A stretch of 64,000 nt of DNA from Candidatus Omnitrophota bacterium (lineage in GTDB: Bacteria > Omnitrophota > Gorgyraeia > Gygaellales > Profunditerraquicolaceae): positions 10,228 through 74,227 of the forward strand of contig JAUYBI010000041.1 in NCBI GenBank assembly GCA_030693145.1, written 5' to 3'. Under the pieces are notes generated by a model, which worked only from the letters and a program-made list of their open reading frames with translations, had not been told where the DNA came from and made no database searches. Below are positions 1 to 64,000 of this stretch, in pieces. The position numbers and the translations under genes are program-made. Position 1 is the first letter of the stretch; the number at the start of each line of letters is the position of its first letter.

Positions 1-2
1 AT

Positions 3-63000: not shown

Positions 63001-64000
63001 TACGTAAAAAACATAAACTATACCCTGAAGCAAAGGACAAAATTGATATACTCTTTAACTTTATTAAAGATAAAAATCCTCAACTGAACAGTAATAATAC
63101 AGAAAAAAGTGACGGAGGAAAAGATGAACGTGTATTTACGGTAGGGATGGCATTTGATTCATTGGTAATAGTAGTAACCGCTGTATTTATTAGAGATTAT
63201 TTATATAGCCGCGCTAATTTATTGTTCTTCATATTTATGCTTGGCGCTTTGGCGGCGATGTTTATATTTAAGGAATGGCGGGAAATGCCGCTAAATGACT
63301 TCCGAATATCTATGCAACACGAAATAGCCCTGCCGTTTAAGATATGGCGTATCCAAAGAGAATTACACGGCCTCGGAATCAGCCAGCAGGTTATCAGGGA
63401 AAAATTTTATGCGGAGGATAAACGGCTTTATTATTTGCACCGGGGTTATTTATTTTATTTAAATGAAAGAAAGGCAAATATAGATAATCTGAAAAAGATA
63501 GCTTTAAAAATAATTGAATTAAGGGATAAAAAGATAGGAGAGGGATATTTTATTAAAGATAGCCAAAAGAAACAAGACGGCGGGACCATATTCGTTCCTC
63601 ATTATAGTCACTATAAAAGAAGGTCGCGGACAGTTCAATTTCAGTTGAAAGCATTCAGACGCAGAGGTTATTCTCTTAGGGAACGCACGGAACAAGCAAT
63701 GAAAGATTTGCGTAAATGGCTGGGGAGAGTAAATAATATTAACCGCAAATATAATCCATATACAGATGCTACCGAAAAAGCAATCGGAAATAATGCGGAC
63801 TGGATTTCCGGTTTTGACTGTTATATTAAGCATGATATAGAACGAAAGGAAGATATTAAGTCTATTGGGGAGGGAGTAAAAAGATTTGCCAAGCTTTATG
63901 TTTCCCTTGAGCGCATAAAGGGATGGGGGATGAATTCAGGCAAGCGCAGGCTTGCGGATAAATTAATTTTATGGTTTGTCCCCATGAGTTATAAAGAGAA
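3..64000 (+). CDS. giant multidomain ORF, internal fragment (no start or stop in window); fused metabolic-enzyme domains
   Basis: Codon-by-codon reading in phase nt 3,6,9... finds no TAA/TAG/TGA across the window. The ORF track lists + strand ORFs only in the other two phases (3907, 14251, 20833, 25726 = phase 1; 44156 = phase 2) and none in this phase, as expected for a frame with no stop. Translation is protein-like throughout, with many recognisable domains (listed below as sub-features). Confidence 0.85.
1980..3260 (+). other. domain: B12-binding / radical SAM
   Basis: Rossmann-like B12-binding segment ([10 protein letters not shown]...PDVIGVSLI) followed by the radical-SAM Cys triad C-Y-H-R-C-A-F-C (CxxxCxxC; Cys codons ~2613, 2625, 2634). 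Confidence 0.75.
3595..4660 (+). other. domain: DegT/DnrJ/EryC1/StrS-type PLP aminotransferase
   Basis: NGTLGLEL...; HAHGSTYKG; [11 protein letters not shown] (PLP-Lys motif); [10 protein letters not shown]; overall collinear with sugar aminotransferases. Confidence 0.75.
4950..5930 (+). other. domain: GHMP-kinase-like
   Basis: [10 protein letters not shown] (Gly/Ser-rich ATP loop), GGWQDH, C-terminal [12 protein letters not shown] motif typical of the GHMP C-terminal domain. Confidence 0.55.
6400..7440 (+). other. domain: ASKHA sugar-kinase-like (ROK/BadF-type)
   Basis: [15 protein letters not shown] (phosphate-1-like), [18 protein letters not shown]...; actin-like ATPase fold signature. 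Confidence 0.5.
7890..8340 (+). other. domain: adenylylsulfate (APS) kinase, CysC-like
   Basis: [19 protein letters not shown]-loop (~7920-7946); [28 protein letters not shown]; [39 protein letters not shown], near-canonical APS kinase. Confidence 0.85.
8480..9900 (+). other. module with PHP (polymerase/histidinol-phosphatase) domain, copy 1
   Basis: [16 protein letters not shown]...[10 protein letters not shown] His/Asp metal motifs; the whole ~1.4-kb module is paralogous to 17060-18480. Confidence 0.6.
12546..12602 (+). repeat. 57-nt perfect direct repeat, copy 1 (in frame: [19 protein letters not shown])
   Basis: caggaaattggcgagaagttctataaagacgataagataattattcagacagctaat is identical to 15780-15836. 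Flanks are also similar (G-G-V-N-V-E upstream, variant DGG codons). Confidence 0.8.
14020..14700 (+). other. domain: HAD-like hydrolase (tentative)
   Basis: [13 protein letters not shown] (DxDGT-like motif I with Asn in place of the first Asp), ...RVIIITNN..., [14 protein letters not shown]. Confidence 0.4.
15780..15836 (+). repeat. 57-nt perfect direct repeat, copy 2
   Basis: Identical 57-mer to 12546-12602, same reading phase, 3.2 kb downstream. Confidence 0.8.
17060..18480 (+). other. module with PHP domain, copy 2
   Basis: [12 protein letters not shown]...[51 protein letters not shown] collinear with 8480-9900 ([12 protein letters not shown]...[51 protein letters not shown]). Confidence 0.6.
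20190..21780 (+). other. domain: alpha-D-phosphohexomutase (phosphoglucomutase/phosphomannomutase family)
   Basis: FSTSGIRG start motif; TGSHVP (cf. TASHNP phosphoserine loop); [10 protein letters not shown] (cf. GDGDR Mg loop); [15 protein letters not shown] (cf. RPSGTEP). Confidence 0.8.
22440..23700 (+). other. domain: SIS-type sugar-phosphate isomerase-like (PGI/PMI-like)
   Basis: [12 protein letters not shown]...[10 protein letters not shown] pattern typical of SIS domains. Confidence 0.5.
24150..25860 (+). other. domain: glucose-6-phosphate isomerase, copy 1
   Basis: [14 protein letters not shown]; [12 protein letters not shown]; [19 protein letters not shown]; [14 protein letters not shown]; [19 protein letters not shown] (PGI signature 2). 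Bounded by in-frame DGG at ~24110 and ~25910. Confidence 0.9.
26040..26840 (+). other. domain: shikimate/quinate 5-dehydrogenase-like (AroE fold)
   Basis: [16 protein letters not shown]..., [35 protein letters not shown] Rossmann motif. Confidence 0.65.
27230..28120 (+). other. domain: 6-phosphogluconate dehydrogenase-like
   Basis: [20 protein letters not shown](P) fold; [27 protein letters not shown] (cf. G.GHYVKMVHNGIEY..MQLIAE). Confidence 0.7.
28810..29440 (+). other. domain: 6-phosphogluconolactonase
   Basis: [11 protein letters not shown]; [11 protein letters not shown]; [20 protein letters not shown], classic Pgl/DevB motifs. Confidence 0.85.
29500..31310 (+). other. domain: glucose-6-phosphate isomerase, copy 2 (with internal 25-codon tandem duplication ~30190-30290)
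   Basis: Same PGI motifs as copy 1 (~80% nt identity over aligned stretches). Carries an extra [25 protein letters not shown] that duplicates the downstream [16 protein letters not shown]. Bounded by DGG at ~29484 and ~31306. Confidence 0.9.
31560..32230 (+). other. domain: class I SAM-dependent methyltransferase (no. 1)
   Basis: [13 protein letters not shown] motif I; ELIVFEDVV motif-II-like. Confidence 0.6.
32410..32960 (+). other. domain: P-loop nucleoside/uridine-kinase-like
   Basis: [20 protein letters not shown] Walker A; IIEGNYLL. Confidence 0.5.
33400..34100 (+). other. domain: DUF89/ARMT1-like phosphatase fold (tentative)
   Basis: [15 protein letters not shown]...KGQANYYT resembles DUF89 family signatures. 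Confidence 0.4.
34500..35790 (+). other. domain: hexokinase
   Basis: [15 protein letters not shown]; LGFTFSFP; [15 protein letters not shown]; SVDNDTVGT; ILGTGSNMC, all canonical hexokinase motifs. Confidence 0.9.
35850..36500 (+). other. domain: class I SAM-dependent methyltransferase (no. 2)
   Basis: [15 protein letters not shown] motif I; LILIYFP. Confidence 0.6.
36620..37740 (+). other. domain: ROK-family glucokinase-like
   Basis: [15 protein letters not shown]; [11 protein letters not shown]; VFVLGGW. Confidence 0.65.
37990..38590 (+). other. domain: histidine phosphatase (PGAM branch)
   Basis: [16 protein letters not shown] catalytic motif; ...FCHG... Confidence 0.75.
40770..41910 (+). 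other. domain: N-acetylglucosamine-6-phosphate deacetylase (NagA, amidohydrolase)
   Basis: [14 protein letters not shown]; SIGHTKPT; ATHVYNGM; [11 protein letters not shown]. Confidence 0.8.
41990..42400 (+). other. domain: 3-hexulose-6-phosphate synthase (OMP-decarboxylase fold)
   Basis: LQVALDF...[15 protein letters not shown]...[11 protein letters not shown]...AGADIVII. Confidence 0.85.
43270..43830 (+). other. domain: SIS isomerase, 6-phospho-3-hexuloisomerase-like
   Basis: [17 protein letters not shown]; [12 protein letters not shown]; immediately follows the HPS domain as in RuMP HPS-PHI pairs. Confidence 0.7.
44294..44566 (-). CDS. hypothetical small protein, antisense to the giant ORF (possible TA-like pair with 44559..44804)
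   Basis: ORF track entry with ATG start. Protein-like composition ([17 protein letters not shown]...). Overlaps the upstream ORF by 8 nt in ATG..TGA style. Confidence 0.4.
44559..44804 (-). CDS. hypothetical small protein (TTG start; weak)
   Basis: ORF track entry. Begins with a TTG codon. Operon-like overlap with 44294..44566. No family recognised. Confidence 0.25.
45540..45704 (-). pseudogene. hicA: decayed HicA toxin remnant
   Basis: ATGA overlap with the hicB stop (tcat at 45701-45704), exactly as in the intact pair at 50591-50594. Reverse translation gives [23 protein letters not shown] then a stop (cf. intact [21 protein letters not shown]...). Confidence 0.45.
45701..45925 (-). CDS. 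hicB: HicB-family antitoxin (UPF0150)
   Basis: [48 protein letters not shown] matches the HicB N-terminal RNase-H-like fold consensus. The likely true start is the internal Met (MKLK). Confidence 0.75.
46765..47095 (+). other. domain: ICMT/phospholipid-methyltransferase-like membrane methyltransferase
   Basis: Hydrophobic helices; [28 protein letters not shown]...[24 protein letters not shown], typical isoprenylcysteine carboxyl methyltransferase family C-terminus. Confidence 0.7.
47250..47900 (+). other. domain: class I SAM-dependent methyltransferase (no. 3)
   Basis: [15 protein letters not shown] motif I; VIILRNPDP. Confidence 0.55.
48231..48440 (-). CDS. DUF2283-family small protein (TA-associated)
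   Basis: [48 protein letters not shown] matches the DUF2283 consensus. ATG start. Confidence 0.75.
50291..50341 (+). repeat. cassette-junction repeat A (…gtttccc…cacccttgaccgctcagcgcgccttGACGGCGG)
   Basis: About 47 nt near-identical to 51865-51910. Shares the 3' 25-mer with 50907-50933 and 54579-54604. Translates in frame to ...[10 protein letters not shown]. Confidence 0.8.
50361..50594 (-). CDS. hicA: HicA-family mRNA interferase toxin
   Basis: [67 protein letters not shown], canonical YcfA/HicA. 4-nt ATGA overlap with hicB. Confidence 0.9.
50591..50818 (-). CDS. hicB: HicB-family antitoxin
   Basis: [49 protein letters not shown], canonical HicB. GGAGG RBS 8 nt upstream. Confidence 0.85.
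50819..50862 (-). promoter_or_regulatory. putative RBS/promoter of hicBA (minus strand)
   Basis: Minus strand reads ...ttgtatttttataagtaggaggtataaatATG: AGGAGG 8 nt before the ATG, with an AT-rich TATAAG-like -10 upstream. Sits between cassette junction repeat B and hicB. Confidence 0.35.
50861..50933 (+). repeat. cassette-junction repeat B (aagtcaagg…ggccgttcagcgcgccttGACGGCGG)
   Basis: 5' aagtcaagg box also present at 45947 and 51833; 3' cgcgccttgacggcgg core; translates ...GRSARLDGG. Confidence 0.8.
51191..51568 (-). CDS. DUF5615 (PIN-like) toxin
   Basis: [57 protein letters not shown] matches the DUF5615 consensus. Overlaps its DUF433 partner. Confidence 0.85.
51558..51782 (-). CDS. DUF433 antitoxin
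   Basis: [54 protein letters not shown], canonical DUF433. AAGGAGG RBS upstream. Confidence 0.85.
51829..51910 (+). repeat. cassette-junction repeat C (aagtcaaggcg…gtttcccggg…cacccttggccgctcaacgcgctttGACGGCGG)
   Basis: Contains both the aagtcaaggc box and the long 3' element; translates ...[10 protein letters not shown]. Confidence 0.8.
52560..53100 (+). other. HEAT/PBS-lyase-like repeats (4-5 units)
   Basis: Tandem ~38-aa units: [29 protein letters not shown] (four or five times). Confidence 0.55.
54579..54606 (+). repeat. junction repeat D (tgatcgctcagcgcgccttGACGGTGG)
   Basis: Same 3' element as A-C with a one-base variant core; translates DRSARLDGG. Sits directly upstream of the CN-hydrolase domain. 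Confidence 0.7.
54600..55500 (+). other. domain: carbon-nitrogen hydrolase (nitrilase superfamily)
   Basis: Glu...; ARKHRDL (Lys); [13 protein letters not shown] (catalytic Cys context). Confidence 0.55.

Follow-up and report, generated by a model that had tools for sequence, protein, structure and literature searches.

A 64,000-nucleotide stretch of contig JAUYBI010000041.1 (positions 10,228 to 74,227 of the forward strand; assembly GCA_030693145.1, a Candidatus Omnitrophota bacterium), referred to below as the window, covers at least 21,332 codons from the interior of one giant gene of the Omnitrophota multi-enzyme type. Within it, the borders of protein modules are marked by an exact Asp-Gly-Gly (DGG) tripeptide that lies in hydrophilic linkers. 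Comparison with related giants showed that they mark the same kind of predicted border by a motif that is uniform within genomes and differs between them. These patterns suggest that the multi-enzyme giants of Omnitrophota could be cellular polyproteins with a genome-specific punctuation code, composed of re-punctuated cassettes and possibly cut by a protease that is itself an embedded module carrying an HExGH motif. We assign this reading as a whole a probability of roughly 45%.

One open reading frame punctuated by Asp-Gly-Gly

A preliminary description of the window had claimed that it is a single stop-free frame on the + strand, that such a frame could not have arisen by chance, and that the gene extends beyond the window. 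We recomputed the stop count per frame, and all three points held. The + phase beginning at nt 3 contains 0 TAA, TAG or TGA codons, and no in-frame stop that would speak against the claim was found; stops number 1,838 and 2,294 in the remaining + phases and 712-1,500 across the three - phases.

3..63998 (+): single unbroken reading frame, giant-gene fragment; 21,332 codons, no stop, open at both ends

At 38.7% G+C the stop probability is p=0.074 per codon, so that ~1,576 stops are expected and the probability of finding none is ~10^-711. Since the frame is open at both window edges (nt 3 and nt 63998), the gene must extend past the window. The translation has a normal protein composition, and the codons show an RNY-type position bias with purines favoured at the first position. 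Codon usage is correlated at r=0.90-0.97 among eight 8-kb segments of the window, GC content stays at 0.36-0.41 along its length and GC skew is positive all through, which argues against a chimera of unrelated loci. Two internal copies of phosphoglucose isomerase (PGI) share 82% amino acid identity, with 89% identity at codon positions 1 and 2 versus 66% at position 3, and this greater divergence at position 3 indicates purifying selection on the translated protein. It is very unlikely that the frame is dead or was created by chimeric assembly.

Beyond the main frame, we found only antisense shadow open reading frames (ORFs), of 181 aa at most, and no Rfam family or tRNA was detected within the 64 kb. 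Frame 1 of the - strand has 712 stops versus 1,174-2,294 in the other non-coding frames, which is the expected pattern opposite a coding frame with RNY bias, and its shadow ORFs measure 181 aa at most.

A k-mer enrichment scan of the translation returned a single outlier, DGG, which was seen 53 times against 5.8 expected (z ~20; the maximum in 1,000 shuffles was 15) and supplies 53 of the 125 Gly-Gly dipeptides of the translation. The sites together span 1947..63584 (+), and their first bases are as follows.

DGG sites, set 1 (+, in frame): 1947, 7461, 10389, 12525, 12618, 13341, 14925, 15759, 18627, 20163, 21807, 24108, 25908, 25923
DGG sites, set 2 (+, in frame): 29484, 31308, 32265, 34449, 35802, 37800, 37866, 38607, 39588, 40656, 41976, 42396, 43134
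DGG sites, set 3 (+, in frame): 43209, 44211, 44817, 45537, 45987, 46029, 46581, 47178, 47952, 48738, 50064, 50142, 50334
DGG sites, set 4 (+, in frame): 50925, 51165, 51903, 52461, 54597, 55524, 56433, 59898, 60069, 61815, 62706, 63111, 63576

Not one of the 53 sites falls within a Pfam envelope, though such envelopes cover 27% of the residues (P ~6e-8). Around the best-defined domains, the distances from the preceding DGG to the domain start and from the domain end to the following DGG were:

Phosphoglucomutase (PGM): 7 aa before, 19 aa after
PGI-1: 59 aa before, 25 aa after
PGI-2: 49 aa before, 12 aa after
Hexokinase: 7 aa before, 11 aa after
His-phosphatase: 40 aa before, 36 aa after
NagA-type amidohydrolase: 80 aa before, 26 aa after
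3-hexulose-6-phosphate synthase-like (HPS): 5 aa before, 31 aa after

The segments of at least 100 aa between DGG sites number 43 and have a median of 324 aa, an ordinary protein size, and nine shorter spacers measure 2-77 aa (for example DGGSFDGG). Module and free enzyme coincide most clearly for the hexokinase, whose 448 DGG-delimited residues match whole free-standing enzymes: the 451-aa protein P0007 aligns over its residues 10-444, and ~70 free-standing hexokinases of 424-538 aa align with the module end to end. The PGM, PGI, NagA and His-phosphatase models are covered nearly full-length between marks.

The flanks of DGG are more hydrophilic than random positions (z=-3.7), and the residue before the Asp is most often K (12 of 53), L (9), R (6) or F (5). 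Met follows DGG only 4 times against 8.5 expected, and this lack of enrichment makes internal initiation unlikely. At the nucleotide level, the octamer GACGGCGG occurs 30 times in the window, always in the main frame and never on the other strand. The preference for GAC GGC codons at DGG is mostly a general context bias of D-G and G-G pairs (Fisher p=0.03 and p=0.10), and we found no nucleotide conservation around DGG beyond 8 bases, which together place the signal at the peptide level. A nucleotide-level signal (a Shine-Dalgarno-like GGAGG, an internal start, a recombination site or a Chi-like octamer) was rejected as the main explanation on these grounds, namely the general context bias of the codons, the lack of flanking conservation and the lack of downstream Met enrichment.

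Two sub-classes of mark could be recognised. One, '(G/D)RS(A/T)R(L/F)-DGG', occurs at aa 16778, 16975, 17301 and 18199 (~50300-54600 (+)) and is concentrated in the membrane-associated C-terminal third; the other, 'F(S)(I/V)F(D/N)(K/E)G.EG.RY(V/I)GE-DGG', occurs at aa 14403 and 15179.

Border motifs in related giants

Word-index homolog searches were nearly blind to this protein (2, 2 and 0 matches), and an exhaustive HMMER search was used instead. The best matches to aa 11,001-12,200 were P0003, P0004, P0009, P0039 and P0051, all partial proteins from metagenome-assembled genomes (MAGs) of Candidatus Omnitrophota, with P0003 52% identical to the window over three modules. For the module that joins shikimate-dehydrogenase-like (Shik), 6-phosphogluconate dehydrogenase (6PGD) and 6-phosphogluconolactonase (6PGL) domains, the relatives were P0161 (65%) and P0162 (59% over the full alignment, 65% best local), both Omnitrophica, and P0039 (52%). 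The nearest relatives of three separate regions of the window are Omnitrophota MAG proteins at 52-65% identity, which assigns the gene to this phylum indirectly. When the hexokinase alignment was scanned against one genome per GTDB species, nine loci were recovered that are wholly one stop-free frame (stretches of up to 21.3 kb on contigs of up to 97.6 kb), eight of them labelled Omnitrophota and one Planctomycetia; the same scan returned ~70 ordinary free-standing hexokinase genes of ~450 aa. The parent contig was not recovered by an 8-mer-peptide scan of GTDB genomes with the hexokinase module, by an exact 47-mer scan of JGI metagenomes or by an alignment-based metagenome scan with the Shik-6PGD-6PGL module.

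Among 29 long relatives and the nine giant loci, enrichment of DGG is shared only by P0039, a 6,219-aa partial protein of contig JAPLLS010000050.1 (GCA_026387435.1; locus L001), in which DGG occurs 16 times against 1.5 expected and solely between domains. DGG was rejected as a universal mark of these giants for this reason. Other giants were found to carry motifs of their own:

L003: (S/A)SP(L/I), 14 versus 0.29 expected; brackets HATPase_c, HD and hexokinase
L006 (also L077): LDNGG, 6 versus 0.02 expected in L006; brackets PGI, GNAT and hexokinase
L013 (also L008): (A/S)SSA, 5 versus 0.11 expected in L013; brackets hexokinase, phosphofructokinase and an amylase-like domain
P0013: AAAAG, 7 sites; brackets hexokinase

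The [SA]SP[LI] mark is also present in P0162, P0161 and P0001. In the giants with these other motifs, the genome's own mark stands at both borders of the hexokinase module. The Ser residues of the L003 motif are written with both TCN and AGY codons, which cannot interconvert synonymously, so that selection must act on the peptide. LETG (P0034) and YGDG (P0059) were rejected as border marks, being parts of repeated domains.

The Shik-6PGD-6PGL module allows one border to be compared directly. Its N-terminal border reads DGG(SFDGG) in the window, DGG in P0039 and GSSPV in P0162. Between the Shik-like and 6PGD domains, P0161 has SSSPL (aa ~425), and the window there is unmarked and reads 'DSSSSF'. 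As the window module is nearer to its SSP-type relatives (59-65%) than to its DGG-type relative (52%), the mark follows the genome and not the module. The window's 'DSSSSFK' (29100-29200 (+), aa ~9060-9075), which lies opposite the SSSPL of P0161, may be what is left of an SSP-type mark that has decayed in a genome where DGG is now used.

Module order also differs between the two DGG-type giants: ARMT1 precedes PRK as separate DGG-flanked modules in P0039, and PRK precedes ARMT1 in a fused module in the window. At locus L001, a DGG-containing ORF of at least 689 aa that ends in TAA (1-2070) precedes the 6,219-aa ORF (2063-20719), whose ATG start overlaps the preceding ORF by 8 nt (ATGTTTAA) in another frame. 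Either the punctuated string would be split here into at least two coupled ORFs, or a frameshift would be involved.

Border motifs are unmentioned in West-Roberts 2023 and Nielsen & Lui 2026, and full-text searches gave no paper describing such motifs; the DGG punctuation and the HExGH modules described below are new relative to the published accounts of Omnitrophota giants found in our literature search.

Modules along the chain

We cut the translation into overlapping 1,000-aa pieces and scanned these against Pfam and NCBIfam. This recognised ~28 catalytic-type domains from ~22 families. Some 30 Pfam families occur over the chain and none is dominant, the highest copy numbers being ~5 for the methyltransferase fold and 3 for PGI-type modules, and self-BLAST found repetition confined to a few duplicated modules. 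The chain is accordingly, as first described, one of many different catalytic domains and no repetitive adhesin. The accompanying statement that these domains are apparently intact stood in part. Hexokinase, both PGI copies, the DegT aminotransferase and the adenosine phosphosulfate (APS) kinase are full-length with key motifs present, and NagA is full-length as judged by model coverage alone. On the other side, the hexulose-phosphate synthase is half-length (1-101 of 205), most domains score far under the NCBIfam equivalog cut-offs, only 27% of residues fall in Pfam envelopes, and the last ~3,600 aa contain no domain recognisable by the Pfam and NCBIfam scans. The recognised features, other than the HExGH modules, are:

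2016..3191 (+): B12-binding plus radical SAM domain, methyltransferase-like (PF02310 1.9e-19, PF04055 2e-19; NCBIfam B12-radical SAM families)
3549..4637 (+): DegT/DnrJ/EryC1-type sugar aminotransferase (PF01041 2.8e-77, profile 4-358 of 360)
4776..5945 (+): GHMP sugar kinase, like the C-terminal half of fucokinase (NF009948 2.9e-36)
7875..9050 (+): APS kinase, then a PHP-type domain like 3',5'-bisphosphate nucleotidase (TIGR00455 227.8 bits, cut-off 138.7; NF041577 1.6e-8; PF01583, PF02811)
11583..11957 (+): CofD/YvcK-like domain (PF01933 2.8e-13; TIGR01826)
20172..21806 (+): phosphoglucomutase/phosphoglucosamine-mutase module, domains I-IV (PF02878, PF02879, PF02880, PF00408; TIGR03990 1e-49)
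22218..23687 (+): third, divergent PGI/SIS-like module (NF007080 5.1e-45)
24117..25907 (+): phosphoglucose isomerase module 1, bracketed by DGG (PF00342 791 bits, profile 1-486 of 486)
25932..29483 (+): Shik-like, 6PGD and 6PGL/NagB-like domains, one module without internal DGG (PF08501, PF03446, PF00393, PF01182)
29493..31307 (+): phosphoglucose isomerase module 2, paralog of module 1 (PF00342 761 bits)
32274..34448 (+): PRK/uridine-kinase-like plus ARMT1-like damage-control phosphatase module (PF00485, PF01937)
34458..35801 (+): hexokinase module, 448 aa, exactly between two DGG (PF00349, PF03727)
35811..37799 (+): S-adenosylmethionine (SAM) methyltransferase plus ROK-like sugar kinase motif DLGGTN (PF08241 2e-17; the ROK-like motif was read directly from the sequence)
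37875..38606 (+): histidine phosphatase (branch 1) module (PF00300 1.9e-24)
40665..41975 (+): N-acetylglucosamine-6-phosphate deacetylase (NagA-like) module (TIGR00221 1.9e-58, profile 5-380 of 380)
41985..42395 (+): truncated HPS-like module, N-terminal half only (PF00215 3-104 of 221; TIGR03128 1-101 of 205)
43218..44210 (+): SIS-domain module like 6-phospho-3-hexuloisomerase (PF01380; TIGR03127; PDB 1vim)
45774..63269 (+): C-terminal third, with PEMT-like membrane methyltransferase, methyltransferase, HEAT repeats and a weak CN-hydrolase (nitrilase-superfamily) match (PF04191, PF13847, PF02985/PF13646, PF00795)

A second PHP block is listed after the CofD/YvcK-like domain and before the PGM/GlmM-like mutase, and a further methyltransferase sits between PGI module 2 and the PRK/ARMT1-like module. 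The HEAT repeats (PF02985, PF13646) lie at aa ~17,520-17,690; the remainder of the C-terminal third (45774..63269) has no recognisable domain and no homologs among PDB sequences. Across aa 3986-6730, 14102-17521 and 17693-21332, which hold most of the Pfam-free sequence, a phmmer search against PDB sequences returned nothing but one SIS protein. A Kyte-Doolittle scan found 10 hydrophobic 19-mers resembling transmembrane (TM) segments, nine of them at aa 15,258-21,089 and the tenth inside NagA, and no clearly hydrophobic linker segment before ~aa 15,250.

Judged from these family assignments, the theme of the chain is the activation, interconversion and modification of sugar phosphates and amino sugars, mostly by enzymes of apparent cytoplasmic type. 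The cofactors and cosubstrates of the listed enzymes are ATP, NADP, SAM, pyridoxal phosphate (PLP), cobalamin with Fe-S, and APS.

Several modules are of interest in their own right. The two PGI modules (24108-25925 versus 29484-31316) flank the Shik-6PGD-6PGL module, with the divergent third PGI-like copy just upstream; from their alignment, the pair is evidently an in-frame segmental duplication kept under purifying selection. The hexokinase scores 528 bits to human HK2, with the motifs LDLGGTN, NDTVGT (catalytic Asp), GTGSN, NMExG and EKMVSG all present. It belongs to the eukaryote-like two-domain family, which is usually thought rare in bacteria, and is ~45% identical to the halves of human HK2; free-standing proteins closely homologous to it are found widely among MAGs of Omnitrophota, Aminicenantes, Victivallales, Syntrophales and Desulfobacteraceae. 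The half TIM barrel of the hexulose-6-phosphate synthase/OMP-decarboxylase type forms a 137-aa DGG-delimited module, which could be a decayed module or one half of a split enzyme.

Three further modules share an HExGH motif:

12627..13340 (+): HExGH module copy 1, aa 4209-4446, candidate zinc metallopeptidase, DGG on both sides
14934..15758 (+): HExGH module copy 2, aa 4978-5252, DGG-flanked, TPR-like helix pair at its N-terminus
38616..39587 (+): HExGH module copy 3, aa 12872-13195, DGG-flanked

They are paralogous (28-32% identical) and share an invariant '..II(D/E)A..(L/I)HE.GH' and a downstream Glu, which together form a candidate zincin-like signature. The modules gave no Pfam match at E<=10, no PDB profile match and no database homolog. 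An AlphaFold2 (AF2) model had a mean predicted local distance difference test score (pLDDT) of 47, and a Foldseek search with this low-confidence model found nothing at E<1, the minigluzincins selecase and abylysin appearing only at E=6-10. A similar motif, 'IVRHERGH', occurs in the LDNGG-type locus L077 (aa 858), where hhalign to the HExGH modules gave a probability of only 5%. A ~34-aa spacer is present in two copies that are 88% identical (12525-12626 and 15759-15860 (+)), of which one immediately precedes HExGH copy 1 and the other immediately follows copy 2.

That the three DGG-flanked HExGH modules act as an embedded processing metalloprotease is a suggestion that we regard as rather doubtful. 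A C39-type peptidase encoded outside the window would be an alternative. No peptidase family was found in the five related fragments L001, L003, L006, L013 and L077.

Proposed polyprotein processing, its alternatives and known multi-protein chains

If the giant is a polyprotein, translation of the gene would begin far upstream and yield a single chain, as suggested by the absence of a Met or start signal after the marks. The chain would then be cut at or beside DGG by a protease that co-evolves in specificity with the motif, releasing ordinary-sized enzymes, short spacer peptides and a few membrane-anchored pieces. Modules would act as cassettes that can be reordered, fused or exchanged and that adopt the punctuation of the resident genome. 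What favours processing is that the motif is exact, is constant within a genome and varies between genomes at one and the same border, sits in exposed linkers and flanks protein-sized units; what favours the polyprotein reading is the likeness of this pattern to the protease sites of viral polyproteins. For the cutting step itself, at or near DGG and by a protease of co-evolving specificity, we see an even chance.

Several points weigh against this interpretation. Some junctions of the window have no DGG, for example those of radical SAM/DegT/GHMP kinase and Shik/6PGD/6PGL, and no punctuation motif was detectable in the giant fragments L002, L004, L007, P0015 and P0051. The Pfam and NCBIfam scans found no recognisable peptidase family in the window, and the HExGH modules are without detectable homologs or a confident fold in the database, PDB, AF2 and Foldseek comparisons. 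Double-glycine leaders have a consensus that the sequence upstream of DGG does not match. The residues G, S, A, P, D and N are typical of linkers and may serve as hinges, and the N-terminus lies beyond the window, where it may carry a signal peptide that would imply an extracytoplasmic location. The case for processing as a whole rests on sequence inference.

A possible alternative, though we consider it unlikely, is an uncleaved 'metabolon on a string', a multi-megadalton protein anchored in the inner membrane by its C-terminal hydrophobic segments, in which DGG and the other motifs would act as flexible hinges or as places where a chaperone or prolyl isomerase docks during module-by-module folding. 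The residues of the motifs are small, flexible or turn-forming and lie in hydrophilic linkers, as those of such hinges might, and the window's lack of a detected peptidase family would be natural for a chain that stays whole. A membrane-anchored architecture with cytoplasmic domains is favoured for nearly half of long proteins by Nielsen & Lui 2026, and a conserved peptidyl-prolyl isomerase (PPIase) is encoded near giant genes (West-Roberts 2023). However, a hinge needs neither an exact tripeptide nor uniformity within a genome combined with difference between genomes at an orthologous border, and tandem sites with spacers of 2-28 aa (DGGSFDGG) and modules of free-enzyme size fit release better.

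A reading of the motifs as assembly scars of in-frame cassette insertion or shuffling (a microhomology or recombination site), with no role in the protein, appears improbable to us. It would account for the reordering and fusion of modules between the window and P0039 and for the 30 copies of the octamer GACGGCGG, all of them in frame and none on the opposite strand, and mobile-cargo acquisition is among the hypotheses of Nielsen & Lui 2026. Yet the codon bias at DGG is marginal once context is controlled (Fisher p=0.03, p=0.10), nucleotide conservation ends at the 8 bases, the Ser codons of L003 switch between TCN and AGY with the peptide kept, and close relatives carry different motifs at orthologous borders.

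We give still less weight to a secreted or surface effector that degrades and processes the cell-wall sugars of prey (the 'Archaeovorin' reading), given that the enzymes of the window need ATP, NADP, SAM, PLP, cobalamin with Fe-S, or APS, which are unavailable outside the cell. Among the Pfam matches over the 21,332 aa there was no glycoside hydrolase, lytic transglycosylase, dockerin or lectin domain, and ~15,000 aa of the chain pass without a clear linker TM segment. Such a role was nevertheless proposed for Omnitrophota giants by West-Roberts 2023 and by Kizina 2022, the latter as cited in Seymour 2023; sugar-handling domains do dominate the window, and a signal peptide is possible at the N-terminus outside it.

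The last alternative, that the frame is an artefact (through misassembly, as a pseudogene or as an open frame that is not translated), has a negligible probability: stitching or decay cannot yield a 64-kb stop-free frame, codon usage is uniform, purifying selection is seen in paralogs and orthologs, the same architecture recurs in independent assemblies that include long-read complete genomes, and peptides of one giant ORF are on record, as cited in Seymour et al. 2023.

The giant gene itself is a further example of a phenomenon documented in Omnitrophota. The border motifs supply candidate cleavage points, which bear on a question that earlier papers left open, and they make whether and where the giant products are processed directly testable in existing proteomes and with simple constructs. 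They also offer a principled way to split giant proteins into units for structure prediction and annotation. If processing does occur, it would represent a polyprotein strategy at a scale unknown in cellular life, with at least 50 housekeeping-type enzymes per ORF, and would have consequences for stoichiometric expression, gene regulation and modular evolution in these ultra-small episymbionts.

Giant ORFs occur in most Velamenicoccia genomes, with peptide evidence cited for one (Seymour et al. 2023), and by its domain content the window gene is of an already published kind of Omnitrophota multi-enzyme giant. The preliminary description had presented the multi-enzyme content as a departure from the giants known in this phylum; such content had already been reported. 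The 'Archaeovorin' giants contain PGI (glucose-phosphate isomerase), PGM/PMM, radical SAM, HEAT, TPR and methyltransferase domains (West-Roberts et al. 2023, bioRxiv 10.1101/2023.11.21.568195), and a 'multi-enzyme metabolic cluster' class of up to 147,155 aa contains methyltransferase, PGM, radical SAM, HAD and hexokinase domains, some of its members being rich in hexokinase (Nielsen & Lui 2026, bioRxiv 10.64898/2026.06.07.730766).

Members of the latter class (for example KR0015B_u4168876_114, 147,155 aa) are likewise single ORFs of tens of thousands of codons in which many Pfam families occur and none dominates (PGM, radical SAM, methyltransferases, hexokinase, HAD/phosphatases, HEAT), and they have Omnitrophota relatives in common with the window gene, as well as TM segments, which in the window are predicted ones. 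The class is defined by an uninterrupted ORF of at least 10,000 codons, and the window holds 21,332. The catalogue counts 916 proteins of at least 10 kAA, and TM helices and/or a signal peptide are present in 94% of it (Nielsen & Lui 2026); for the window, whose N-terminus lies outside it, the corresponding observation is the 10 hydrophobic 19-mers, by Kyte-Doolittle alone. The differences are that border motifs and processing are not mentioned for that class and that the window gene is known as a fragment only.

Archaeovorin-type giants (Velamenicoccus archaeovorus and relatives; Kizina et al. 2022, as cited in PMC10066038) share HEAT, TPR, radical SAM, PGI, PGM/PMM and methyltransferase domains, and the HEAT-repeat feature is also present in the window. 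GT5/GT1 glycosyltransferases are the second most common domain type in those giants (West-Roberts 2023), whereas Pfam gave no match to any glycosyltransferase family at E<=1e-3 over the 21,332 aa, and such domains may lie outside the window. The SecA DEAD-like domain and C39-like peptidase of the Archaeovorin type were likewise absent from the window; there they lie near the C-terminus, which here is beyond nt 64000. The Archaeovorin type has numerous TM regions along its whole length, while the TM-like segments of the window are confined essentially to the last third. A type II/IV secretion-like locus and genes for carbohydrate import adjoin genes of the Archaeovorin type (West-Roberts 2023), whereas the window is filled entirely by the one ORF.

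Cleavage of these giants has been suspected from their C39-like and subtilisin-like domains, with the cleavage points stated to be unknown (West-Roberts 2023, bioRxiv 10.1101/2023.11.21.568195). Double-glycine leader processing by C39 peptidases, as in bacteriocin export and peptidase-containing ATP-binding cassette transporters (PCAT), resembles the window in that Gly-Gly stands at the putative site, and other giants of the phylum are reported to contain C39-like domains (West-Roberts 2023). Double-glycine leaders, however, have conserved hydrophobic residues at -4, -7 and -12, and no such pattern lies upstream of the window's DGG; the motifs of other genomes (SSPL, ASSA, AAAAG) lack Gly-Gly altogether. 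No C39 domain (PF03412) was found in the window or in L001, L003, L006, L013 and L077, and one could lie outside these fragments.

Fusion enzymes and megasynthases, such as fungal AROM, fatty acid synthase (FAS) and polyketide or non-ribosomal peptide synthetases (PKS/NRPS), also carry consecutive enzymes on one chain, and the unpunctuated Shik-like, 6PGD and 6PGL fusion resembles them. The window gene differs in being 10-100x larger and heterogeneous, with no iterative module logic and no single linear pathway; Pfam detected no carrier-protein, ketosynthase (KS), acyltransferase (AT), condensation (C) or adenylation (A) domains in the window.

Viral polyproteins offer a parallel to the proposed processing. 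Their junction motifs include Q|G for picornavirus 3C, LXGG| for coronavirus PLpro, GG|X for African swine fever virus (ASFV) pS273R and AXA|A for birnavirus VP4. The window gene differs from them in being cellular, in carrying a cargo of at least 50 housekeeping-type metabolic modules instead of replication or structural proteins, and in being known from sequence alone. Like them, it comprises one ORF with many modules of the size of mature proteins, a short junction consensus in exposed linkers that is specific to a genome and differs between relatives, short spacers, and a candidate protease module flanked by the sites.

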